Source: Desulfosudaceae bacterium
GTDB taxonomy: Bacteria > Desulfobacterota > Desulfobacteria > Desulfobacterales > Desulfosudaceae
Assembly (NCBI GenBank): GCA_963674745.2
Contig: CAXXDV010000003.1
Coordinates: 1 to 64,000 of the forward strand
Direction: 5' to 3'
Length of the DNA: 64,000 nucleotides
The notes under the pieces: model-generated
The model's database searches: none
Seen by the model: the letters and a program-made list of their open reading frames with translations, nothing else
What the model was told of the DNA's origin: nothing
Part shown: positions 27,498 to 44,175 of the stretch, piece after piece
How the letters are laid out: each line of letters starts with the position of its first letter
Numbering within the stretch: position 1 is the first letter of the stretch
Translations under genes and position numbers: made by a program

Positions 27498-27512
27498 ACA
27501 GGAGGATACAGT

Positions 27513-27788
27513 ATGAATAACGATCGTGTTGAGAATTGGCGCCGCTTTTCTGCGCATATGGAAAAATATATTGCAGAGCGGACCATCGAAAAATATCAGG
27601 TTGATGAGAGCAAAGGTCTTGACCTGATGAGCCTGTCAAACTCGGAAATCTGCGTCTGGAATATCCTGCGGTATGCTTTGCGTATGTGGAAAGGGAAAAA
27701 GAAACAGCATGACCTGGAGAAAGTTGCTCATTATGCTGAGATGGCGTGGACGCTGAACGGTGCAAAGCCGGCCGCTGATAACAAGTAA
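27513..27788 (+). CDS. Hypothetical MGE protein
   Basis: NILRY..R...K..DLEK..HY pattern; SD AGGAGG. Confidence 0.7.
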   Translation: MNNDRVENWRRFSAHMEKYIAERTIEKYQVDESKGLDLMSLSNSEICVWNILRYALRMWKGKKKQHDLEKVAHYAEMAWTLNGAKPAADNK

Positions 27789-27817
27789 GTTGGCTGCTAT
27801 TGGCTTGCAAGTATATC

Positions 27818-27850
27818 AAAATGCTCTTCATCCTTGGGGAGCATTTTTTT
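27818..27850. terminator. Rho-independent terminator
   Basis: AAAATGCTCTTCA/TGGGGAGCATTTT stem followed by T tract. Confidence 0.75.
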
Positions 27851-27872
27851 GTTTGATGAAAGTGGACCGTTT

Positions 27873-27960
27873 CGTTACGTACGAAATTTATATTATATAA
27901 CGTAGATTCGCTGTTTGCGCCAGTCCGCGTTGTACATAAATTTGCAAAATCAGCCCTATA
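27873..27960 (+). repeat. res-like repeat, copy B
   Basis: CGTTACGTACGAAATT...TATATAACGTAGA, 24 bp, TGTACATAAAT...CTATA. Confidence 0.65.
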
Positions 27961-29134
27961 AGGATTCTGTATTTTGTAGAGAATCAAGTGGGCTTCGCAC
28001 TCCAAGACTATTTATTTTGGCGACATGCGTATAGATCATGGTTGTCTTTAAGCTGGAATGGCCGAGCAGTTCCTGGACAGTTCGGATATCAGATCCATCT
28101 TCAACCAGGTGAGTGGCAAATGAGTGTCTGAGCGTATGCGTGGTTACCCGTTTGGAGATGCCAGCTTTTACCGCAGCCCTTTTTAAATGCTTCTGTAAAG
28201 TGGACGGATATATATGCCACCTGCGAATAATACCTGTTTTAGGGTCCGTTGATAATGAGCTTGCCGGAAACAGCCATTGCCAGATCCACTCCTTACCGGC
28301 ATTCGGGTATTTTCTTTCAAGCGCAAAAGGCAGTTCAACACCGGGCACGTTATTTTTTCTGTCGTTTTCAAATATCAATCGAACTTTATCAATATGCTTT
28401 TTTAAATCATCCCGTAGGCTTTGAGGCAACACGGTTTGCCGGTCCTTATCGCCTTTTCCGCCAAAGATAGTAATCGTGCCTTTTTCAAGACCCACATCTT
28501 TGATCCTTAAATTCAGGCATTCAGTTAATCGCAAGCCTCCGCCATACATGATCTTTGCCATTAAACGATAAACACCATCCATATGATCAAACAAACGCAA
28601 TACCTCTGATTTGGTTAAGACAACCGGAATATTGCGCCGACTTTTTGACCTGACCACATCATTTAGATCTTCGATATCTTTTTCCAGAACATGCCGGAAG
28701 AAAAACAGCAGTGCGTTAAAAGCCTGGTTCTGGGTGGATCGGCTGAATTTTTTATCGACAGCCAAATGGGATAGAAAATTTCTTACGTGAGTGCTGTCAA
28801 GCTTGAAGGGCGAGGAGCTTCTATTAAACAGATAAAAGCACCTTAACCAATACATATACGTCTGTTCAGTGGCCAGGGCACGGCGCTTTAATCGCAGTAT
28901 GTTTTTCATCTCATTGGCTGCAAAACGCCATTGGTCATCACTGTTAACAGCTTCTGTATTGGCCGGCTTGATTTTTGTTTTGACAAAAAATTGGTATAAG
29001 TTGATGGCTTCGGCAGCCTGTTCGATCTGCCAGTCCTCGTGTTTTCTCCCCAGCTTTTGTAAATAGGTCTGAATCTCTGCGCTGGAAAGCTCATCACCAA
29101 ATTGCTTTTGGCTGGCCGACAGGCACTTTTTCAC
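27956..29134 (-). CDS. intI: Integron integrase (tyrosine recombinase); reading frame is open to 29224
   Basis: STQNQAFNAL, GGLRL.E, GKGDKDR, integron-specific insert LP.ALERKYPNA..EW.WQWLFP, HTLRHSFATH, LLGH, TMIYTH. Confidence 0.96.
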   Translation of the reverse strand: MKKCLSASQKQFGDELSSAEIQTYLQKLGRKHEDWQIEQAAEAINLYQFFVKTKIKPANTEAVNSDDQWRFAANEMKNILRLKRRALATEQTYMYWLRCFYLFNRSSSPFKLDSTHVRNFLSHLAVDKKFSRSTQNQAFNALLFFFRHVLEKDIEDLNDVVRSKSRRNIPVVLTKSEVLRLFDHMDGVYRLMAKIMYGGGLRLTECLNLRIKDVGLEKGTITIFGGKGDKDRQTVLPQSLRDDLKKHIDKVRLIFENDRKNNVPGVELPFALERKYPNAGKEWIWQWLFPASSLSTDPKTGIIRRWHIYPSTLQKHLKRAAVKAGISKRVTTHTLRHSFATHLVEDGSDIRTVQELLGHSSLKTTMIYTHVAKINSLGVRSPLDSLQNTESL

Positions 29135-29222
29135 CCAGATTGTATAAAAAGGCGCACTTTTGGGGGTAACAAGCTGTTTTGATTTGATATATGTTTCAAA
29201 GTCATTGAAAGCGACCTCCTGA

Positions 29223-29269
29223 AATCAATATATTGTATTTTTCCAATTAATAAGCACCATATATTGTGT
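29223..29269. promoter_or_regulatory. Tandem NrdR-box-like operators upstream of intI
   Basis: AATCAATATATTGTAT (29223-29238) and GCACCATATATTGTGT (29254-29269), 31 bp apart; match acaCwAtATaTwGtgt. Confidence 0.6.
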
Positions 29270-29484
29270 GTAAAGAGGGGCGCATAATAAAAAACCGGAA
29301 TTAAAGAGTCGGTCTGTATAACATGCCAAATAGGGACAAAACACAGACCGGTTGAACAATGCTCAGCATGTCAAATGACGTTACATTTCTTATAATGGTT
29401 TGATAACAAAAGATATCGTTGATTTCTTCGAAATGATGTGATTTTATTTAATAACAACTTCAAATCTTCACAAAATCAGAAAAC

Positions 29485-29526
29485 GGGACAAAAGGCAGAC
29501 CGACTACATAATTACTAATGTTAAGT
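29485..29526 (+). other. Putative attI site
   Basis: G|TTAAGT at 29520-29526 is complementary to the inverse core ACTTAAC of the first attC; no attC palindrome upstream. Confidence 0.75.
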
Positions 29527-29806
29527 GCACTGATTCTGTACGGGAAAAAAATAAAAAAAAGAATTCTGGCGGAAAACGACATTCGTTGCCAAAATGGTAA
29601 TTGTCACCAAGTTGAATTTTTCGGCCAGTAAAGATAAATTGTAATTATGAACTGGCGCGGCCAGATGATTTTGCGCCTTTATTTGTCCGGATGAAAAGAG
29701 ACCTACCCGTTTTCATAAGTTCATGATGGACAAGGCGTAAAAAGAAAAAAATCATTTTAATTGATTTGCTCATGCTGTCGTTAAAGTCTTTCTGAATAAT
29801 GCGGGC
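29521..29806 (+). other. Cassette 1: gene-less cassette with putative promoter and long hairpin
   Basis: No + strand ORF of gene size; TTGAAT-17-TAAATT at 29612-29640; inverted repeats at 29665-29755. Confidence 0.65.
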
Positions 29807-29932
29807 ACTTAACCAAGCAGCCCAAATGACAGCCAGGGCATTCGGGTTTTGGATATACCGGGGGAATTGAACAGTAAACAACTTTAATAAAGGCAGTGGA
29901 AGCCCTGGCTGCTTTGGCTGCCGACGTTATGT
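29807..29932 (+). repeat. attC 1 (family A)
   Basis: ACTTAAC...CAGCCAGGGC/GCCCTGGCTG...GTTATGT. Confidence 0.9.
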
Positions 29933-29953
29933 GCCTCACGAAGCTAAAATTTT

Positions 29954-30298
29954 ATGCCTTTTAATGAACTTGAACTAAAAAGAATTGATAAATTTATCGG
30001 AGAAAGCTTCAGGAATCTGGTTCCGCTCGAAATTCAAAACAAATTGCGAAACGAAATTCGTATTGAAGGACAAAATGTCATAATTTCAGAGGTTCGCCCA
30101 CGATGGGATAACCCTGAAGAGTGGATTGTTTCAGATTTTGCAAAGCTTCGATATATAAGAAGTCAAAACGTTTGGAAACTTTATTGTAAGCGGGCAAGCG
30201 GTAAATGGATCTTTTACGAACCAAAAGGAGAAGCCAAAGATTTAAAAATTTTAGCGGATGAAATAGAAAAAGATAGATTCCACTATTTTTTTGGATAG
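29954..30298 (+). CDS. Cassette 2: DUF3024-family protein
   Basis: I.EVRPRW...AKL.Y.....WKLY..RA.GKW..Y.P...D....FFG. Confidence 0.85.
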   Translation: MPFNELELKRIDKFIGESFRNLVPLEIQNKLRNEIRIEGQNVIISEVRPRWDNPEEWIVSDFAKLRYIRSQNVWKLYCKRASGKWIFYEPKGEAKDLKILADEIEKDRFHYFFG

Positions 30299-30303
30299 TT
30301 GGC

Positions 30304-30430
30304 ACATAACCAACAAGCTCAAGTGGACAGCCAGGGCACTCGGGTTTTGAAATTTCGAGGGAATTGAACAACCATAATCTTTAACTAAGCTGGTGGAAAC
30401 CCTGGCTGCCATTGGCTTGAGACGTTCGAT
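30304..30430 (+). repeat. attC 2 (family A)
   Basis: ACATAAC...GTTCGAT palindrome. Confidence 0.9.
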
Positions 30431-30438
30431 GCATAAAA

Positions 30439-30831
30439 ATGTCATACAAAATGAATCAAAAACAATTTGATCAGGTTGTCTCATTATCATCGGAAAAACG
30501 ATATGCCCACTTTATATCGAAAACCACTGATTGGGAGGAGATCTGGACGCTAAAAGGCCCTGATGGTTTTGTATTATTTGGCGATCCATCTGGTCATGAG
30601 TGCGTTCCTCTATGGCCACATCCTGATTATGCGACAGCCTTCACAAATGGCGAATGGTCAAACTGTGCCGCAGAACGACTTGAATTAAGCGTTTTTTTAG
30701 AACGGTGGATACCAGGCATGATAAAAGATAAACGAATGGTAGCGGTATTCCCAACTCCGGATGAAAAAGGAATCGTTATTGACCCTCAGAAATTAAATGA
30801 AGATTTATCTGCGGAATCAGAAAAGTATTAA
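30439..30831 (+). CDS. Cassette 3: DUF2750-family protein
   Basis: RY.HFI....DWEEIW.L...G...P.WP..YA...W...FLE.WIPG. Confidence 0.85.
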   Translation: MSYKMNQKQFDQVVSLSSEKRYAHFISKTTDWEEIWTLKGPDGFVLFGDPSGHECVPLWPHPDYATAFTNGEWSNCAAERLELSVFLERWIPGMIKDKRMVAVFPTPDEKGIVIDPQKLNEDLSAESEKY

Positions 30832-30839
30832 TATGCGGC

Positions 30840-30966
30840 ATCGAACAATTCAGCGCAAGAGGATCGCCAGGGCACTCGGGTTTTGACTTCTGTGCTGAAT
30901 TGAATATGAACCGACTTTAAGACAGTCAGAGAAAGCCCTGGCGCCCTTTGGCTGAAGACGTTGAGT
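30840..30966 (+). repeat. attC 3 (family A)
   Basis: ATCGAAC...GTTGAGT palindrome. Confidence 0.9.
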
Positions 30967-30971
30967 GTAGA

Positions 30972-31337
30972 GTGAATATTTTCATTAAATTAGTACCGGT
31001 TATTTTTTTGATAATTTTTGGCTGCACTGATCCGTTCGATTTTGATGACCCGCAAAATTTTTGCGTAAGAGTTTTCAATGATACAGACAGAGAAGTAAGT
31101 ATATACTATGCTGTAGAAGATAATGATTATCATAACGAAGATGTAATAGTTAATCAGGAAAAAGAAACAATCCATGTCGGAGATCACGTGTTAATCGAAA
31201 TTCAAGCTATCTTTTGGGATGGTGAACTCACTGCTGAATATGGTGGTATATTAAATATATACGAAGTAGATGAGGAATTCCTTGGTTGCCGGGATATTCA
31301 TATTGAAGTTGATGATTTTATAGAACCAAACAAATAA
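30972..31337 (+). CDS. Cassette 4: acidic lipoprotein
   Basis: GTG start inside the cassette; lipobox-like IIFGC. Confidence 0.7.
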   Translation: MNIFIKLVPVIFLIIFGCTDPFDFDDPQNFCVRVFNDTDREVSIYYAVEDNDYHNEDVIVNQEKETIHVGDHVLIEIQAIFWDGELTAEYGGILNIYEVDEEFLGCRDIHIEVDDFIEPNK

Positions 31338-31344
31338 AATTTAC

Positions 31345-31472
31345 ACTCAACAATTCAGCGCAAAAGGATCGCCAGGGCATTCGGCTTTTGAACATTCGGG
31401 GGAAACTGAACATTAACCATTTTTAAGTCAGCTAGAGGAAGCCCTGGCGCCCTTTGGCTGAAGACGTTATAC
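31345..31472 (+). repeat. attC 4 (family A)
   Basis: ACTCAAC...GTTATAC palindrome. Confidence 0.9.
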
Positions 31473-31489
31473 ATCCGAGAGATAATGCT

Positions 31490-31888
31490 ATGCCTTTAAG
31501 CCATTTCGTTGAATCATATAAATTTTGGGACGTAGTTACGCTATGGGCAAAAGAGAAACTTGAACATGAAGACATCGTTGCAAGAGCTCTTGCCCGTGGA
31601 ATAATTCGAGATGGATTATTATTCCAAAGCATTGATACACGATGGACAAAAGGAAAAGAATTAGAATTCGATGGTGATCCATATGTTGGTTTCATCGCGA
31701 AACCAGAAGGTTTAATTATAGTGCTTCGGGCGGAAGTATTGGAACATTTATTGTCAATAGTCAGAACTGCAAAAAAACCTTCAAGGGATATAATCAAGGA
31801 CGAGTTTGTGTTGAGGGATGATTTTCATAATTGGATAATAGAAACAAAACAAACGCTCCCTCATTTTTGGTTTTCAGATAATCAATAA
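31490..31888 (+). CDS. Cassette 5: hypothetical protein
   Basis: ATG 31490; fills the cassette; ends LPHFWF. Confidence 0.75.
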   Translation: MPLSHFVESYKFWDVVTLWAKEKLEHEDIVARALARGIIRDGLLFQSIDTRWTKGKELEFDGDPYVGFIAKPEGLIIVLRAEVLEHLLSIVRTAKKPSRDIIKDEFVLRDDFHNWIIETKQTLPHFWFSDNQ

Positions 31889-31897
31889 ATAAAGGAT

Positions 31898-32020
31898 GTA
31901 TAACAACACCATGCACTTGACTCGCAGGGGCGAGCTGCTTTGAAAGTATCGTAGTTCGGTGTTAACGTGGCTTTGCAAAAGTCACCTTTCCCTGCTCCCA
32001 AGTGACGGTGGACGTTCGGC
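31898..32020 (+). repeat. attC 5 (family B, divergent)
   Basis: GTATAAC...GACTCGCAGGGG/CCCTGC...GTTCGGC. Confidence 0.85.
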
Positions 32021-32036
32021 ATCAAATGAAAATATA

Positions 32037-32444
32037 ATGGAGCAAATTAAAACAGAAAACCAGATCGCAATCGAGAAAATTTCTGCTGGATTAAAAGATT
32101 TATCCCTATCGGTATTTTTGATGACAATTGCCCTTGGAGTCTTATTCTATATCATTTATCATAATGATTTAGATACTCGTAAGGGAGAATATTTGTTATT
32201 TTATTCTCTTGTTCCATTTGGTGCGACATTGATACTATCGATAATATCAATCTACAAAATTGGAAAAACTTTACAGAAGAATGTTGATGTTTGGTTTTTG
32301 GCCAGTATTATCTTTCCGATAGTTATTTTTATTGCGATACTTTATTTCTTTATCATCGCAGTTTTCCAAATAATAAAATTAAAATTAAGCAAGGATGCCG
32401 AACAAGGCAGCGCAAAAAGACAACCAGGGCAGGTGCGTTTCTGA
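32037..32444 (+). CDS. Cassette 6: membrane protein (reads into attC)
   Basis: Three hydrophobic segments; ATG 32037. Confidence 0.7.
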   Translation: MEQIKTENQIAIEKISAGLKDLSLSVFLMTIALGVLFYIIYHNDLDTRKGEYLLFYSLVPFGATLILSIISIYKIGKTLQKNVDVWFLASIIFPIVIFIAILYFFIIAVFQIIKLKLSKDAEQGSAKRQPGQVRF

Positions 32445-32524
32445 ACATTCGGGGGAATTGAATATCAAACAACTTTAAGGAAGGCGGAGGACGCCCTGGC
32501 TGCTTTTGGCTGCCGCCGTTATAT
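32397..32524 (+). repeat. attC 6 (family A)
   Basis: GCCGAAC...GTTATAT palindrome. Confidence 0.88.
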
Positions 32525-32546
32525 TTTAAAGGGTAAATAAATTATT

Positions 32547-32996
32547 ATGGCCTTGAGCCTTTCCGAAAGAATGGACTTGTTCCAAAGATTTAAGGATAAG
32601 GACATTGATAAGTTGCTCAAATTATCAGTAACTTTTAAGGCCAACAAAAATTATGATAAGGCCCACCTTACTGATTTGCTGATAAAAATTAAAACCCAGG
32701 ATATTGATGGCTTAAAACGGCTAACCAAAGAATTATCACGTTCTGGAGCTTTGATGGAATCAGTTTATGCTGATTCTCTGTTACAAGAAAAATTATCGAG
32801 AAAAACAGAAGAAAGAAAACAAGCGAAAAAACAGAAAAAGATGGCCAAGCGCGAGAAGAAAGAAGAACCCGAAGAAGATAAGTCTATACCGCCATTTGGG
32901 CTAACAGATGAGGTTTATGAGGCTATGTCGAAAAGAATTGCACTTAACTCACAAAGACATAAGGACAGGATAAAAGGAGCCTCAGAGACAGAATAA
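32547..32996 (+). CDS. Cassette 7: basic, coiled-coil-like hypothetical protein
   Basis: 149 aa, Lys/Glu rich, fills the cassette. Confidence 0.75.
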   Translation: MALSLSERMDLFQRFKDKDIDKLLKLSVTFKANKNYDKAHLTDLLIKIKTQDIDGLKRLTKELSRSGALMESVYADSLLQEKLSRKTEERKQAKKQKKMAKREKKEEPEEDKSIPPFGLTDEVYEAMSKRIALNSQRHKDRIKGASETE

Positions 32997-32997
32997 A

Positions 32998-33121
32998 ATA
33001 TAACAACGCCACTCACACAGACTCGCAGGGGCGCCCTGCCTTAGTTTTTGCATAGTGTGGTGTTGAACTAACATTTAAGAAGTCCGCAAACCCTGCTCGC
33101 CGGTGGTGGCGGACGTTATAT
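32998..33121 (+). repeat. attC 7 (family B)
   Basis: ATATAAC AACGCCAC...GTGGCGGAC GTTATAT. Confidence 0.92.
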
Positions 33122-33178
33122 GCTTTAATTGATTTTCTTTAAAGAAATTCTGCTCTTGTGGATATATAATGACAAAGT

Positions 33179-33436
33179 ATGATTGAGACTAAATCAGACT
33201 TTCGGGAACAAAAGGGATTTAAATCCGACGATCTTGTGTGCCATTGCTTTGGGTACACGAAAAAAGATATTGAATTTGACCTGAAGGAAAATGGCAAATC
33301 CCTTATCCTTGAGAGAATAGCTCTTGAGAAAAAAGCTGGCGGATGTAATTGCGTTTCGAAAAACCCATGTGGCGAATGATGTTTAGCTGATGTCCGCCAG
33401 GTGGTGGAATCATTTAAAAAGAAAAACAGCATATAA
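33179..33436 (+). CDS. Cassette 8: BFD-like/CopZ-associated Fe-S/metal-binding probable selenoprotein (UGA 33377-33379 read as Sec)
   Basis: VCHCFGYT...CNC...NPCGE(UGA)CLADV; SECIS-like hairpin at 33388-33412; next stop TAA lies in the attC inverse core. Confidence 0.8.
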
Positions 33437-33554
33437 CAACACGTTGGTGAGGGACCGCAAGGGGCGGTCGGTTTTGGCACTTATCAAATAATTCAAAAAC
33501 GTGTCTTCGGCGGCGGCCCGTTTCCCTTGCGGCCCCACACCGTGGACGTTAGGA
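33431..33554 (+). repeat. attC 8 (family B-related, divergent)
   Basis: ATATAAC...CCGCAAGGG/CCCTTGCGG...GTTAGGA. Confidence 0.85.
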
Positions 33555-33566
33555 ATATAATATTTT

Positions 33567-34031
33567 ATGAAGCTACCCGACATGTTGATGGCTTTAATCC
33601 TTATTGCGCTTGGCTCTTTCCTTTTTATGGTTTCATATCATCATCTAAATAATTCAAAAGCCACAGAAAAATGGGTAAAACATAAAGGAGTTGTTTTAAA
33701 TATTGATTACGAGCGTACCTCAATGGGACGTAGAATTAGCAATAGTCCTGTTGTTAAATACAAGTACGAAGTAGATGGAAAAACTTTTCGATCAAATGAC
33801 AGGGAGTTCCCGGATGGGCTAGAAGATGAGGATATATTTGGGCTATATAAAAAGGATAATATAATTGCAATCTACTATAATCCGAATAAACATGCTGAAT
33901 CCTCGCTATTTATTGGCACTAATACAATGAATTATATTTTTCTGTGTTTTTCAGCAATTATTGCTATTGTCGGATTGTTGTTTTTATTTTTTATAGCCAT
34001 TAAAGCAAAAATACAGAGTATGAATTCCTAA
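33567..34031 (+). CDS. Cassette 9: DUF3592-like membrane protein
   Basis: TM, W...G.V, Y.Y.VDG, YYNP..H.ES.L, TM; stop in the attC core. Confidence 0.8.
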   Translation: MKLPDMLMALILIALGSFLFMVSYHHLNNSKATEKWVKHKGVVLNIDYERTSMGRRISNSPVVKYKYEVDGKTFRSNDREFPDGLEDEDIFGLYKKDNIIAIYYNPNKHAESSLFIGTNTMNYIFLCFSAIIAIVGLLFLFFIAIKAKIQSMNS

Positions 34032-34153
34032 CAAGGCATCGCAAGAGGATCGCCAGGGCACTCGGGTTTTGAACATTCGAAGAAAATTGGCCATAATACA
34101 ACTTTAAGTCAGTCGGAGTAAGCCCTGGCGCCCTTTGGCTGCCGACGTTATAT
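34026..34153 (+). repeat. attC 9 (family A)
   Basis: TCCTAAC...GTTATAT palindrome. Confidence 0.9.
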
Positions 34154-34158
34154 GCAAT

Positions 34159-34458
34159 ATGAATGATACAAATATCAAAAATTTGAAAGAAGCTGTTGGC
34201 TTGGCATGTGACGCATCGTACACGCCAAATATTTTGAAGGGGAGAGATATTATTCTCTCAATGCCAAAAAAATGGGTTCTTGAAAATATCGAAAATGTTG
34301 CGGCGGAAACGCTGAACTTATCCGACGAATGGCATTTTAGGCGGCTTCTGGAAGTTTACGAAACCCTTGATCAAGATTTGGTTACAAAATTAGTTGAGTT
34401 TGGTCTTAAAAGCACAAACGAAGAAATCGTTGAAGCCGCAACTGATTTTAAGAAATAA
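34159..34458 (+). CDS. Cassette 10: small helical hypothetical protein
   Basis: ATG 34159; DEW.FRRLLE...EI.EAA.DF. Confidence 0.75.
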   Translation: MNDTNIKNLKEAVGLACDASYTPNILKGRDIILSMPKKWVLENIENVAAETLNLSDEWHFRRLLEVYETLDQDLVTKLVEFGLKSTNEEIVEAATDFKK

Positions 34459-34467
34459 TATTTTTGC

Positions 34468-34591
34468 ATATAACAACGCCACCCACACGGACTCGCAGGG
34501 GCGGGCCGCCTTGGCTTTGGCGTATTTTGGAGTTAAACTCACTTTAGCGAAGTCCGCAAGCCCTGCTCGCCGGTGGTGGCGGACGTTAGAC
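34468..34591 (+). repeat. attC 10 (family B)
   Basis: ATATAAC...GTTAGAC; body identical by eye to attC 14. Confidence 0.92.
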
Positions 34592-34592
34592 C

Positions 34593-34949
34593 TTGAAAAT
34601 TATTTTTATGGGCATCCACCTCCTTACCCGATATCGACGAAAACTATATTTTGTTCTGGGTTTTTTTCTTATTGTTTATGCACTTAATATTTTTGTTTTT
34701 GCAAAAAATCTCAGAGAATTTACATATATGTCATTTTGGTTGTTCATGTTCCCTGGTTATATTACAGGATATCTGTTACTGCTGGTCGCTTTAGAATTTA
34801 CATTGAGAGGAAAAAGAGGAAAATATTTACGAACGGTCGAGAATATTTTTTTAGGAGTATTTTTTTGTGCATTAACAATAATCTTTTTACTCTCTGCATG
34901 GCACTTCGGTGGCGTAGGATATGTTTGGAATATAATAATGCCGGTCTAA
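34593..34949 (+). CDS. Cassette 11: membrane protein
   Basis: Three hydrophobic segments; stop in the attC core; start uncertain. Confidence 0.7.
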   Translation: MKIIFMGIHLLTRYRRKLYFVLGFFLIVYALNIFVFAKNLREFTYMSFWLFMFPGYITGYLLLLVALEFTLRGKRGKYLRTVENIFLGVFFCALTIIFLLSAWHFGGVGYVWNIIMPV

Positions 34950-35067
34950 CAACGCCACTCACGCAGACTCGCAGGGGCGGGCCGCCTTGGATTTGGCGTA
35001 ATTTTGAGTTAAACTCACTTTAAAGAAGTCCGCAAACCCTGCTCGCCGGTGGTGGCGGACGTTGTGC
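34944..35067 (+). repeat. attC 11 (family B)
   Basis: GTCTAAC...GTTGTGC palindrome. Confidence 0.92.
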
Positions 35068-35085
35068 AGCATAAAACGGTATTCT

Positions 35086-35673
35086 ATGCGAAAAATATTA
35101 TTAATCTTAATTCCGTGCTTAACTCTTTATGCTTGTGGGTCAGGTTCACCGGTTTACACTGTGATGGAAGGTAGTGAAGCTATCATTACTCAAAAGGGAG
35201 AAATAGTTAGAGGCCCTGTTAAACCCGGGCTTCATTTTAAATTACCTTTTGCCGAAAACGTTCATGAATTTAAAGTATGCAGAATTGAACAAATACCGAT
35301 AAAATTAAACAGTTTTCCTGAATATACTGCTTCTATTCTCTGGAAAATCCAAGAGCCAAAGGCTTTTTATTATGCCACTCGAGATAAAGACATAAAAATA
35401 GTTTTAGATAGTCTCTCAGATAAATTTCAAAAGGCGCTAAAGAACATTGAAACTGATAAGATTGCACAAATCGCTGAGGGACAGGAAAGCGATTGCAACT
35501 ATTCAAATCATATGTACGAAAATATTAAAGAGAGCATACAAAGCCAAGCCAAATCGATTGGTATAGAAATCTATAGTATAATTTTTAAAAAAGTTAATGC
35601 GGCTGCACAACAACGCCACTCACACGGACTCGCAGGGGCGGCCTGCCTTAGTTTTAGCATAGTGTGGTGTTGA
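35086..35673 (+). CDS. Cassette 12: SPFH/HflC-like lipoprotein (reads into attC)
   Basis: Lipobox LYAC; V.EG..AIIT..G...PGLHFKLPF; WKI..P..FY; GIEI. Confidence 0.75.
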   Translation: MRKILLILIPCLTLYACGSGSPVYTVMEGSEAIITQKGEIVRGPVKPGLHFKLPFAENVHEFKVCRIEQIPIKLNSFPEYTASILWKIQEPKAFYYATRDKDIKIVLDSLSDKFQKALKNIETDKIAQIAEGQESDCNYSNHMYENIKESIQSQAKSIGIEIYSIIFKKVNAAAQQRHSHGLAGAACLSFSIVWC

Positions 35674-35728
35674 ACTAACCCTTAAAAAGTCCGCAAACCC
35701 TGCTCGCCGGTGGTGGCGGACGTTATAT
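35605..35728 (+). repeat. attC 12 (family B)
   Basis: GCACAAC...GTTATAT palindrome. Confidence 0.92.
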
Positions 35729-35761
35729 GCTTTGAACTTAAATGCACAAAAATAATTTCAC

Positions 35762-36142
35762 ATGTTCAAAAAAAGATTACTAAACATTCAATGTCCAGAT
35801 TGTAGTGGAGAATTCGATCTGAACTCCGAAGCGATGAAGCAAAGAAAAAACCGTCGTAATTTTTTTTATTTATCTGAAATTGAATGTCCATTATGCAATT
35901 CTATTTTAATTCCAAATATAAATGCCAGAAGAAGAGCCATTTTCATGTTATCACTTTTTGTTCTTGCTTTTATATGGATTATTTTGGGAGTTATTTCCGA
36001 TCTGACAAGCTTTGGGATCAATTATAATTTATATAAATACGTATCAATTTCTCTTTTGGGTTTATTTGGTTTTGCTACCATATATATTAGATTTAAATAT
36101 TCTACATATGAACTAATAAGTAGAAAGAATAATGGCATATAA
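35762..36142 (+). CDS. Cassette 13: zinc-ribbon, 2-TM protein
   Basis: CPDC...CPLC followed by two TM segments; stop in the attC core. Confidence 0.75.
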   Translation: MFKKRLLNIQCPDCSGEFDLNSEAMKQRKNRRNFFYLSEIECPLCNSILIPNINARRRAIFMLSLFVLAFIWIILGVISDLTSFGINYNLYKYVSISLLGLFGFATIYIRFKYSTYELISRKNNGI

Positions 36143-36261
36143 CAACGCCACTCACCCGGACTCGCAGGGGCGGTCGGTTTTGGGTTTTAGCATAGTGTGG
36201 TGTTAAACGAACATTTAAGAAGTCCGCATCCCCTGCTCGCCGGTGGTGGCGGACGTTATAT
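36137..36261 (+). repeat. attC 13 (family B)
   Basis: ATATAAC...GTTATAT palindrome. Confidence 0.92.
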
Positions 36262-36345
36262 TTTTTATAAAGATGAAATTGATGAGATAGTACTGATTTT
36301 TTGGCTATTGATATTTAAAACTAAAAGCGAATTGGAACAATTGTT

Positions 36346-36609
36346 TTGATAGCCGAATACAAATCCAAAGCAAATATTGGTGTAGGAGTAGGTTTTCTCC
36401 TTCAAGCGTTGAGCATTGTAATGCCCCGTTTCGGAAATGCCGGGGAGTTGATCGGCACTATATTTGCCGCGGTAGGAGGAATTCTCTTCCTATGGGGCTG
36501 TTGTATGTATGCGAAAGGCAAGGGACATCACAGCGCATGGGGTTTGCTTGCATTTTTGTCGCTTCCTGGATTATTGGTCTTGGTTCTTTTTAAAGACGAG
36601 CATAAGTAA
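36346..36609 (+). CDS. Cassette 14: small membrane protein
   Basis: WGC..YAKGKGH...WGLL...GLLVL...D. Confidence 0.75.
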   Translation: MIAEYKSKANIGVGVGFLLQALSIVMPRFGNAGELIGTIFAAVGGILFLWGCCMYAKGKGHHSAWGLLAFLSLPGLLVLVLFKDEHK

Positions 36610-36622
36610 ATTATTCCGAAAA

Positions 36623-36746
36623 ATATAACAACGCCACCCACACGGACTCGCAGGGGCGGGCCGCCTTGGCTTTGGCGTATTTTGGAGTTAAACTCACTTT
36701 AGCGAAGTCCGCAAGCCCTGCTCGCCGGTGGTGGCGGACGTTAGCT
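36623..36746 (+). repeat. attC 14 (family B)
   Basis: ATATAAC...GTTAGCT palindrome. Confidence 0.92.
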
Positions 36747-36757
36747 TTATAAAGTCG

Positions 36758-37201
36758 ATGATAAAAAAATATTTCATATCTGCTTTTTGGGGGCTATTCG
36801 CAGTACTGATACCTTATTCCGTTTTGGTTTTCATTGTTGGAAAGTACACCCCGTCAAATATTTATGGATTAGTTGCCAGTATTTTAGCCCTGATGATAGG
36901 TTTCATTCTCTTGTTTTGTGGGGGGTATATTTCCGGAAGTCTGCTTGGAAACGAAAAAAATGAACGAATTGAAATTTTGAAATTATTACTGGTGACACCT
37001 GGTTTATACATAAGCATTTTTGCCTTTGTGTATATTTCTTTTTGTGATCGTCATAATGTTTTTCAATTTTTTATGATGCTCTTTTTGATATTTTTTTCAA
37101 CGATGGGATCATTTTTGGGATATAAAAACAAATCAAAAGCTAACAAGGCATCGCAAGAGGATCGCCAGGGCACTCGGGTTTTGGACAATTTTGGGGATTG
37201 A
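36758..37201 (+). CDS. Cassette 15: 4-TM membrane protein (reads into attC)
   Basis: ATG 36758; four hydrophobic segments. Confidence 0.7.
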   Translation: MIKKYFISAFWGLFAVLIPYSVLVFIVGKYTPSNIYGLVASILALMIGFILLFCGGYISGSLLGNEKNERIEILKLLLVTPGLYISIFAFVYISFCDRHNVFQFFMMLFLIFFSTMGSFLGYKNKSKANKASQEDRQGTRVLDNFGD

Positions 37202-37264
37202 ACTTAAAACACCTTTAAGGCAGTCAGAGAAAGCCCTGGCGCCCTTTGGCTGCCGCCGTTGTGC
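37138..37264 (+). repeat. attC 15 (family A)
   Basis: AGCTAAC...GTTGTGC palindrome. Confidence 0.9.
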
Positions 37265-37531
37265 GTATAAAACGCTTTTTGGAAAATCGAGCTACTCGAT
37301 AATTTTTGGCAGGATGAATTTGAAACAAAGGGGGAAAAAGATATAATTTTCATCTTTGCGAATGAACCACCGGCATCGATCAGATCATGCGTTTCTGATC
37401 AGCCGGAAATTGGATTTTTTGAATTCGCCAGTCAATCCGGAAAAGATGAAAAACGGTTTCTGTAATTTTTTGCAAAACTTTGTAACGAAAAGCCCTGCAA
37501 ATTTTTGTGAATCACTATAAAATATATTTTC
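37259..37531 (+). other. Cassette 16: gene-less cassette with promoter and branched secondary structure
   Basis: No ORF of 60 aa or more on either strand; TTGAAA-16-TATAAT at 37320-37347; nested inverted repeats at 37347-37452. Confidence 0.7.
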
Positions 37532-37656
37532 GCACAACAATGCAGCCCAAATGACAGCCAGGGCACTCGGGTTCGAAAATTCGGGGAAAATTGAACTTTA
37601 ACCATCTTTAAGGCAGTCGGAGAAAGCCCTGGCTACTTTGGCTGCAGACGTTATAA
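37532..37656 (+). repeat. attC 16 (family A)
   Basis: GCACAAC...GTTATAA palindrome. Confidence 0.9.
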
Positions 37657-37683
37657 GACAAATCAGAAATAGAAAAAATCGAA

Positions 37684-38013
37684 TTGGTTGACCATAAAAA
37701 GAAAAATAGATTTTATAATATCCAATTAATCCTAATAATCCCGAGCATGTTTATTTCGTTTTATGTGATTTGGCAATACAAGCAAGGTTTTTTGAGCAAA
37801 GATACAGTAACTTTGTGGTTCGCAGTCTTGTTTTGCCTAATATCATTTTTGAGCGCTTTCTTTTCAGTTGTCTCTGGAAGAGCCTGGGCGTCAGGAGTTG
37901 CTATCGATAAAGAAAAAATGCCTAAACTGTTCAATGTTCTGGTGTCTTTCTACTTTCTATTTTCAGCTTTATGTTTTGTAACTGTCTTATATTATATAAA
38001 CATAATCTTATAA
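37684..38013 (+). CDS. Cassette 17: membrane protein
   Basis: Three TM segments; stop in the attC core. Confidence 0.7.
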   Translation: MVDHKKKNRFYNIQLILIIPSMFISFYVIWQYKQGFLSKDTVTLWFAVLFCLISFLSAFFSVVSGRAWASGVAIDKEKMPKLFNVLVSFYFLFSALCFVTVLYYINIIL

Positions 38014-38086
38014 CCATTCAGCGCAAAGGATCGCCAGGGCATTCGGGTTTTGAACATTCGGGGGAAATTGAACAATTAAAATCTTT
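38008..38086 (+). repeat. attC 17, truncated (right arm missing)
   Basis: TTATAAC...GATCGCCAGGGC...; no GCCCTGG...GTT arm follows. Confidence 0.85.
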
Positions 38087-38117
38087 ATCCCGGAAAGATT
38101 ATGATTTGGGTCTTTCT

Positions 38118-38205
38118 GGCAACCCAAACCGGCGCGGCTATTAAAATCAAAGCCAAGAATGTTGTCAAATTCAATGCTGGGAAGAAGTTGAGCGACGCTG
38201 TATAA
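38118..38205 (+). pseudogene. hup: 3' remnant of an HU (histone-like protein) gene
   Basis: Translates QTGAAIKIKAKNVVKFNAGKKLSDAV*, the HU C-terminus. Confidence 0.8.
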
Positions 38206-38589: not shown

Positions 38590-38621
38590 GGACAGCGGTT
38601 CAACTCCCGCCGCCTCCACCA
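38590..38621 (+). other. tmRNA (ssrA) 3'-end fragment, probable att site
   Basis: GGACAGCGGTTCAACTCCCGCCGCCTCCACCA: T-loop plus Ala acceptor 3' strand, with no 5' part of the gene upstream. Confidence 0.75.
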
Positions 38622-38819
38622 ATTTACCCATAATTTCAATTATTTATAAATAATAGGCGCAAAATTGTGTCTATTATTCTTTTTCCTGTTTTTTCTGTCG
38701 GTATTTCTGCTATTTGTTGTATCGTTCCCATGATCAATTCCATATGCTACGAAAACGGGTTTTGCTTGATTAAAATAAATTACTTGACAAATTTTGCAAG
38801 TTAATATATTTAAGCAAGT

Positions 38820-40722: not shown

Positions 40723-40842
40723 TGACACAAAATTATTCATGATGATGAATAATGACAAAAGGCAGAATGAGACGCTGCTTAAAATTATTTATAAATTACT
40801 GTTATTGTGGGAAAAAATATCAATGTGCCTTGGTGGAAAAAC

Positions 40843-40867
40843 CGGGGTTCAACTCCCGCCGCCCCCA
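40843..40867 (+). other. Second, degenerate tmRNA 3'-end repeat
   Basis: CGGGGTTCAACTCCCGCCGCCCCCA; followed by arm-like repeats TTGTGACCAAA x2 at ~40925-40958. Confidence 0.65.
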
Positions 40868-40996
40868 ATAATTCTTTAATTATTTCAATTTGTTATAAAA
40901 CAAATTGAAGCCATTTTTGCCGATTGTGACCAAATTGTGACCAAATTGTGGTCACAATTTTTTTTGCCCTGCATTCTCATTCTTCTCCCTGTAAAC

Positions 40997-42512: not shown

Positions 42513-42759
42513 TGGCCTTCCATGAAAATATAGATTTATGCTGAAAGAGATCCTGTCTGATTCGGTAGAAGGTTGTACTTTTTAGGTGATTTTAGCAGGA
42601 AGCGGAAGCCACGCCAATAAAGATAATAAGCGTGGCTGAAGCCCGAGCACGGAGACCTACCTTTCTGATGATAAAATGTTGGTTATCTGTAAAAGATTGA
42701 CGCCGTGATTTTATGGGTATATATGGGTAATATTACGGGTATGAAAAAGGGGGCAAATC

Positions 42760-43809: not shown

Positions 43810-44175
43810 CCTGCGTGGGCGGACAGCTTCCGCAATTATTCTTTACCCGAGTTTCTTCTTTAGCAGTACGTTTTCTATAAACGTATCAATCGTTTTGAGG
43901 AAGGGCTTTTGTCGGCCTGCCGGTAGTCTCTCGATCTTTTTCTTTCTGATGAAAAATGTTGGAGATCTGCAAAGGATTGACACCGTGATTTTATGGGTAT
44001 ATATGGGTAGTGTTGTGGGTGTGAAAAAGGGCGCTGGCTTTTTTTTTCGACCACCTACACCTATGAATCAACAAGAATTTTTGAAAAGCAGCTCTTTGAC
44101 AATCAGAAAAATTTTAATAAACAATCGATACCATTAGAAGAATTCGGTTGGTCAAAAACGACCAAGGCAATTCTC

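Follow-up and report, generated by a model that had tools for sequence, protein, structure and literature searches.

Twin predicted NrdR sites on an integron integrase promoter suggest that a shortage of DNA precursors turns on cassette shuffling

Integron integrases are a textbook case of stress-switched recombination via LexA. An integron of a Desulfosudaceae bacterium raises the question of which other signal could govern such an integrase. It lies in a stretch of 64,000 nucleotides (the window, whose numbering is used below unless a contig is named), equal to C3:1–64000 of a host genome of 5,546,839 bases in three contigs that is 99.96% complete. An earlier note on the letters of the window proposed that the integrase gene answers to the dNTP pool through NrdR, and not to the SOS response. 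To our knowledge, NrdR is generally seen as a regulator of ribonucleotide reductase genes and of hardly any others.

The question is a general one. Many environmental integrons reside in hosts without a usable LexA, and the available text of Cambray et al. (PMC3108266) treats the restraint of integrases there as open. On intI promoters that text describes only E. coli-type LexA motifs. The delta-proteobacteria are placed among the groups in which LexA control has been lost, and what else restrains the integrases there is the question raised.

Two boxes on the predicted integrase promoter

The integron integrase gene, intI, occupies 27956–29221 on the minus strand. It was assigned by the profile TIGR02249 (424.2 bits against a cut-off of 265) and by the Pfam domains Phage_int_SAM_4 and Phage_integrase. 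Upstream of it the two 16-bp palindromes described in the earlier note were found 31 bp apart, start to start. The predicted proximal NrdR box covers 29223–29238 (AATCAATATATTGTAT on the plus strand) and the predicted distal box 29254–29269 (GCACCATATATTGTGT on the plus strand), with a linker of 15 bp (29239–29253) between them. Each box is self-complementary at 12 of its 16 positions.

The requirements for an NrdR site are known from mutagenesis. According to the available text of PMC13584703, a site consists of two boxes with a linker of 15–16 bp, the need for both boxes having been assessed there, as was the binding of NrdRs to heterologous sites; the critical bases are C4 and G13, which enclose 8 bp, and at least 63% A/T is needed between C4 and G13. 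All six NrdR-box positions (C4, A6, A8, T9, T11 and G13) are present in both intI boxes. The stretch between C4 and G13 is A/T at 8/8 positions (100%) in one box and at 7/8 (87.5%) in the other, and the linker falls within the 15–16 bp range. Both boxes agree with every sequence feature of the rule as that text gives it. The sole departure among the sequence tests is the adjoining gene, which is an integron integrase and no ribonucleotide reductase operon.

The boxes lie on a predicted promoter of the minus strand. TTTACA (29274–29269) is the predicted −35 element, and TATTAA(T) (29252–29246), inside the linker, is the predicted −10 element. They flank the distal box, which fills the spacer of 16–17 nt. 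On the predicted transcript the proximal box would run from about +2 to +17, and its end is 1 nt away from the conserved intI start. The TTTACA/TATTAA pair was not listed by a consensus promoter scan, since its second hexamer lacks T at position 6. We infer from these elements a weak intI promoter and its start site. The earlier view of one box beside the Shine-Dalgarno sequence and one in a promoter spacer holds in part. GGAGG (29219–29215) does lie 3 nt below the proximal box, and the distal box is flanked by TTTACA and TATTAAT; however, the hexamers escape the consensus scan, and the ATG that GGAGG would serve (29205–29203) is one base out of the integrase frame.

Rarity of the box pair, and the NrdR and LexA of the host

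The six-position rule was written as a regular expression (C.A.AT.T.G-N21/22-C.A.AT.T.G, after the available text of PMC13584703). It matches the host genome at exactly two sites, the nrdD promoter (C1:2132541) and the intI promoter. To score the boxes, nrdD upstream regions were gathered from 29 relatives and the host, and 20 of these 30 contain a box pair under a loose consensus filter. A symmetrised matrix was built from 36 boxes in the nrdD promoters of 18 relatives, leaving out the host's own sites, one duplicate and promoters without a pair at 30–32 bp. The boxes were chosen with a general consensus for NrdR sites, so that the matrix depends in part on the motif of the earlier note; neither the six-position rule nor the host nrdD site depends on it.

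With this matrix the intI pair scores 40.6 bits and outranks every other tandem pair in the genome, as the first of 11 pairs of at least 12 bits. The host nrdD pair follows at 37.7 bits, and the next pair in the whole genome reaches 23.8 bits. The proximal box (21.1 bits) is the second-best single site in the genome, and the distal box scores 19.4 bits. In 20 whole-genome shuffles the top pair was at most 27.9 bits, and no pair reached 30 bits. The comparison with nrd promoters that the earlier note had proposed was made here with those of relatives, and its outcome is the first rank of the intI pair. As the top pair of the genome and one of its two rule sites, at a score of which the shuffles came well short, the intI pair is far beyond chance. 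As a sequence feature, a genuine tandem NrdR operator at intI is well supported.

The regular expression was also run over 60 relatives. In 12 other genomes of the same family it found 13 sites, of which 11 lie just upstream of nrdD by their coordinates, one at a class II reductase gene (in the genome G002) and one at G006:C145. A control with the reversed pattern gave no match in the 12 genomes. In the family the tandem motif is nearly exclusive to reductase promoters, and against this the intI site stands out. High-scoring single boxes also occur elsewhere in the host genome, one of them within a gyrB-like reading frame; that one excepted, they show no obvious tie to replication genes.

The host encodes one NrdR (TIGR00244, 186.6 bits against a cut-off of 124.65), with the Pfam domains Zn_ribbon_NrdR and ATP-cone. 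The earlier note had made its reading depend on nrdR being present, and the gene is intact. The protein retains the sequence VIDSR with Asp15 and Arg17, the residues said in the available text of PMC13584703 to contact C4 and G13.

The only ribonucleotide reductase found in the host is a class III NrdD (PF13597, one match), encoded on another contig than intI. PF02867 and PF00268 gave no match in the genome, and neither did a tblastn search with the NrdJ of a relative. At the nrdD promoter, too, two boxes stand 31 bp apart; TTGACA lies in the linker between them, and the −35/−10 spacer contains the second box. One box in the spacer is thus common to the two promoters. They differ in the place of the other box: at nrdD it lies upstream of the −35 element, whereas at intI it lies in the initial transcribed region. 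The intI pair therefore sits one box further downstream.

A genome of the same genus, G002 (locus L225), carries a gene for a class II, NrdJ-like reductase that is preceded by tandem NrdR boxes (G002:C1:603799–603839); the host lacks this gene. An origin of the intI operator from a lost nrdJ promoter was considered and rejected. Neither Pfam nor tblastn detects nrdJ in the host (G000), the genes flanking nrdJ in G002 map elsewhere in G000, and the two promoters display no extended similarity.

Canonical LexA was searched for in the 99.96% complete host genome, and its DNA-binding domain PF01726 gave no match. TIGR00498 matched three proteins, all below the cut-off and only in the S24 peptidase part; two are XRE-type HTH/S24 proteins and one is UmuD-like. 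The sole SOS-like element noticed earlier, a weak CTGT-N8-CCAA, is present at 29314–29329. SOS control of intI via LexA is unlikely because no canonical LexA was found in the host, in line with what the earlier note had supposed. The XRE-type HTH/S24 genes lie at G000:C3:743112–744163 and G000:C1:1023186–1023893. One of them is directly upstream of the UmuD-like gene, and its promoter contains the palindrome TGTTTATATAAATAAACA. These XRE/S24 proteins might conceivably act on intI.

Related integrases, the integrase start and the attI region

The matrix was applied to 213 intI loci beyond the window copy, in four sets. No pair next to intI was found at 29 loci in the 60 relatives, at 80 loci in all species-representative genomes (at most 55% identical to the window integrase) or at 24 further long-form loci in 400 genomes of the order. 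Among 80 metagenome loci there was one pair, on a contig designated L142. Fewer than 150 nt precede the match in 7 of the 80 species-representative loci and 13 of the 80 metagenome loci, too little to judge these. The 212 loci without a pair include a paralogue in the same genome (C1:2117116–2118351, 55% identical) and the locus of a same-genus relative (58%). With 212 of 213 loci lacking it, the feature is confined to a narrow sub-clade. Viral contigs were searched for the proximal box together with the start-region motif, with no match.

L142 is the closest of the scanned intI loci, 61% identical over 414 aa without gaps. Its proximal box, ATACCATATATTGATT, agrees with the window's minus-strand ATACAATATATTGATT at 15 of 16 positions. 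The distal box lies exactly 31 bp upstream and is 10/16 identical; it keeps C4, A6, A8, T11 and G13, and T9 is replaced by G. The first 10 bases of the linker, with the predicted −10 element, are TTATTAATTG in the window and TTATAAATTG in L142 (9/10 identical). The register is the same throughout, in the order TTTGAA (TTTGAA/TTGAAT at the place of TTTACA), distal box, TATAAA (at the place of TATTAA) and proximal box.

Overall, the operator is identical between the window and L142 at 34 of 47 positions, and its proximal box at 15 of 16, against 41% of the third codon positions (P about 1e-5 at the third-position rate). Identity above that of near-saturated third positions is the pattern expected from selection on a working operator and promoter. 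This evidence of conservation is one further contig, which begins 15 nt above the distal box. For the pair and spacing that the earlier note expected in related intI promoters, L142 has both at the same place, but the other 212 loci have neither. The NrdR operator on intI has so far been seen in two loci. A protein search returned closer relatives, P0002–P0016, at 60–71% identity.

One more locus was considered as a further intI operator and rejected. L114, in an Anaerolineales MAG, has three weak box-like 19-nt repeats of the GGTAGCTAYATATAGTGAC type at L114:644–711, spaced 31 and 21 bp. The repeats directly precede a divergent hydrolase-like ORF, about 450 nt upstream of intI.

The integrase frame is open from 29224, with the upstream TGA inside the proximal box, and reads FQEVAFNDFETY; its 421 codons contain no stop or frameshift. 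The conserved N-terminus EVAF(N/D)(D/K)F starts at 29218, so that GGAGG forms part of the codons for E and V. The conserved start position, 29221–29219, is CAG in the window, and a TGA stands two codons further upstream. The out-of-frame ATG follows GGAGG by 9 nt. L142 has TTG at the start position, directly before GAG GTT, and has the out-of-frame AT(G/A) geometry in common with the window. N-termini in the sub-clade are MEVAFDDF or MEIAFDEF (M-E-(V/I)-A-F-D in P0007 and P0011), and in other relatives within it EVAF, EEAF or ELAF follows a longer called N-terminus. Outside the sub-clade, relatives start with M(D/E/K)..F..Y at a position that is TTC in the window and L142.

The first canonical start in frame is GTG 29134, the start of the gene caller's 392-aa model P0001. 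The ATG past GGAGG opens an out-of-frame ORF of 24 codons (29131–29205, minus strand), whose TGA overlaps GTG 29134 as GTGA; by this overlap its translation could be coupled to that of the integrase. Five relatives (P0009, P0010, P0012, P0015 and P0016) are also called at 390–393 aa, with starts within 3 residues of the GTG 29134 position, and the contigs of two of these are 120 kb and 1.06 Mb long. The shorter form of IntI may therefore be normal. In the present host the protein may be made poorly or in the shorter form. The anomalous start lowers our confidence in an effect at the protein level and leaves that in the operator unchanged.

Two other explanations of the start were rejected. A sequencing error is opposed by the contigs of other sequencing runs, which were compared as Logan contigs; those of runs X1, X2 and X3, possibly from the same source sample, display no difference and no gap over 29083–29313, and L142 has the same geometry. 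For a programmed −1 frameshift from the out-of-frame ATG, a C-CCA-AAA heptamer is present in the window copy, but the counterpart frame in L142 stops after 6 codons and the conserved N-terminus is in the integrase frame.

The host has other intI genes. The long-form paralogue at G000:C1:2117116–2118351 has no NrdR boxes, and neither does a second one at C3:2348267–2349220, which is 44% identical and contains an in-frame TAA. A palindrome, CGTGCC-N6-GGCA, lies between −35-like and −10-like elements in the intI promoters of the paralogue (C1, about 2117030) and of two relatives, L004 and L007. It may be the operator of another regulator, for example a clade-specific LexA-like one; a genome-wide regular expression for it was too loose to inform.

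The attI region lies on the plus strand at 29270–29525, beyond the distal box, and contains repeats and promoter-like sites before a GTTAAGT core at 29519–29525. A perfect 8-bp inverted repeat, CGGTCTGT...ACAGACCG, spans 29310–29352 upstream of the core, and two 19-nt direct repeats (GGGACAAAA..CAGACCG) occupy 29333–29351 and 29485–29503. These repeats may be integrase-binding sites. The consensus scan placed plus-strand promoter-like sites near the core at 29368–29396 and 29485–29512. No Rfam family was found in 27500–31000 at E up to 1.

Where the window has GTTAAGT, contigs of other runs carry an attC end just before 29520, which places the probable attI crossover about 250 bp from the boxes. 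A break at 29313 is seen in contigs of other runs, which include two variants of 29295–29405 that differ at 7 positions. Runs X1 and X2 contain a joint that skips 107 nt (29558 to 29666). It seems that the sampled population is variable in the region of attI and the first cassette. Runs X4–X23, whose shares are small, yield no evidence on habitat or expression; contigs of X4 cover just stretches of attC and cassettes and one conserved segment of intI.

The cassette array, divergent from intI, extends over 29824–38133 on the plus strand with about 15 attC sites in two families, each ending in GACGTTA. Sites of one family include CCAGGGC...GCCCTGG, those of the other CGCAGGGGCG...CCCTGCTCGCC. 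As repeats, the attC sequences fall into families D1–D9, of 82–123 nt and 5–8 copies each. Just past the array a 59-nt repeat, which starts GGTTCAACTCCCGCCGCC, occurs at 38592–38650 and 40841–40899, its first copy continuing to CTCCACCA. It resembles the 3′ terminus of a tRNA gene, a possible sign of an insertion site. A direct repeat of 82 nt, 87% identical, lies at 42673–42754 and 43953–44034, 1280 bp apart.

Proposed control of the integrase

According to the available text of 10.1101/2024.05.27.596032, NrdR tetramers bind DNA when they carry both ATP and dATP but fail to do so with only ATP, and NrdR sites overlap the binding sites of sigma factor and RNA polymerase, as the text at hand of PMC13584703 states. 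Judged from sequence, it is probable that a tandem NrdR operator has been recruited to the intI promoter and that NrdR represses intI and releases it when dATP falls. Host NrdR loaded with ATP and dATP would occupy the two boxes in tetrameric form, blocking RNA polymerase, and it might also repress the divergent cassette promoter. When dATP falls, NrdR with ATP alone could not bind DNA, and intI would be transcribed together with nrdD. We infer this binding, the direction of its effect and its physiological trigger from the site and the known behaviour of NrdR.

Low dATP could arise from replication stress, or from loss of the single oxygen-sensitive class III reductase in this anaerobe. The class III reductase is a glycyl-radical enzyme that oxygen inactivates. 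Since it is the only reductase of the host, exposure to oxygen is a plausible natural trigger. Slowed replication raises the supply of folded single-stranded attC substrate, and a coupling of intI to dATP would therefore be sensible.

A wider scenario can be offered only tentatively, as falling somewhat short of what we would expect to hold. In it NrdR took over the role of LexA in an anaerobe with no canonical LexA and only a class III reductase, and falling dATP frees both nrdD and intI. A drop in dATP from oxygen exposure, replication stress or a drain on precursors would then lead to the capture and shuffling of cassettes when replication stalls and single-stranded attC is most available. 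The NrdR reading of the earlier note is supported in part: the intact nrdR, the rank of the pair under the matrix, the pair in L142 and the lack of a canonical LexA speak for it; against it stand the restriction to a narrow sub-clade and the wrong frame of the Shine-Dalgarno sequence and ATG. Phage infection, which that note gave as an example of a trigger, gained no support.

The operator could be real and yet have the rightward cassette promoter as its main target, alone or with the integrase promoter PintI, so that NrdR would tune cassette expression over recombination. The consensus scan does place a plus-strand promoter-like site, TTGAAA-18-TATATT (10/12), at 29205–29234, with its −10 element inside the proximal box, and a transcript from it would cross the distal box toward attI; a single CRP site is shared by PintIA and Pc in V. 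cholerae (PMC8876359, available text). TATATT is the core of the NrdR box, however, so that the match is expected with or without a promoter and has no independent weight. The −35 element lies within the integrase reading frame, and the two other plus-strand promoter-like sites at 29368–29396 and 29485–29512 are nearer to the attI core. The L142 contig, which stops 15 nt above the distal box, does not bear on this reading. We regard this target as unlikely.

It is also doubtful that the site works, or did so recently, on an intI copy that is translationally crippled, which would make the control vestigial in this genome. This would fit the CAG at a position where relatives of the sub-clade start with M-E-(V/I)-A-F-D and L142 has TTG, and the out-of-frame ATG served by GGAGG. 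The identity of three runs over 29083–29313, though perhaps of one source, argues against an assembly slip, and intI genes are often inactivated in the available text of Cambray et al. (PMC3108266). On the other side, the frame of 421 codons is intact and gap-free to L142, models of 390–393 aa recur in relatives, and the 24-codon ORF ending as GTGA on GTG 29134 could couple translation. That the boxes are AT-rich palindromes present by chance or for another DNA-binding protein, for example as part of attI, with no role of NrdR, is very improbable despite the single high-scoring boxes elsewhere in the genome (the one in the gyrB-like frame among them), as there is a negligible chance that two such sites would stand exactly a 15-bp linker apart, the rule matches the genome twice and the shuffles gave no pair of at least 30 bits, while the attI core at 29519 is about 250 bp off, variation among the contigs starts only at about 29295–29313, and 27500–31000 holds no Rfam family.

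Repression of intI by NrdR, the reading we prefer, can be compared with known systems. The NrdR operators of E. coli nrdAB, nrdHIEF and nrdDG and of S. coelicolor nrdAB and nrdRJ have the same box positions and a linker of 15–16 bp. They too overlap the RNA polymerase region, as is predicted at intI, and have a cognate repressor with Zn ribbon and ATP cone in the genome. The difference is the gene downstream, which here is an integron integrase. NrdR can act outside nrd operons, as the available text of PMC4409342 reports for topA of P. aeruginosa, the one tested non-reductase target that the literature searches brought up. That target has one box only, and NrdR activates it, whereas the full tandem operator at intI is predicted to be placed for repression.

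In the LexA-repressed intI genes of class 1 integrons and Vibrio intIA (PMC3108266, text at hand), the operator of a stress-sensing repressor likewise overlaps the integrase promoter, so that stress on replication or DNA permits recombination. The sensor there is RecA-ssDNA and here would be the dATP/ATP balance, and the operator sequences differ. A 2022 review of integrase regulation (PMC8876359) covers, in its available text, LexA and the inputs of cAMP-CRP, the stringent response/Lon, RpoS, FIS, H-NS and IHF, by which host physiology reaches intI through sites between intI and attI. None of the inputs from cAMP-CRP to IHF senses dNTP pools, and the words "ribonucleotide" and "dNTP" are absent from that text. 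A full-text literature search for NrdR with integron returned, by titles and abstract openings, nothing on integrase regulation.

The twin NrdR sites suggest, as far as a genome sequence can, that a lack of DNA precursors sets off the shuffling of cassettes. A conserved tandem NrdR operator on intI would tie the shuffling of cassettes to the dNTP pool. If this is true, integron biology would gain a novel regulatory input, and the targets of NrdR a new class. If NrdR has moreover taken over the role of LexA, as in the wider scenario, it would be a second, independently evolved stress switch of integrons, and the NrdR regulon would extend to a recombinase of mobile DNA.
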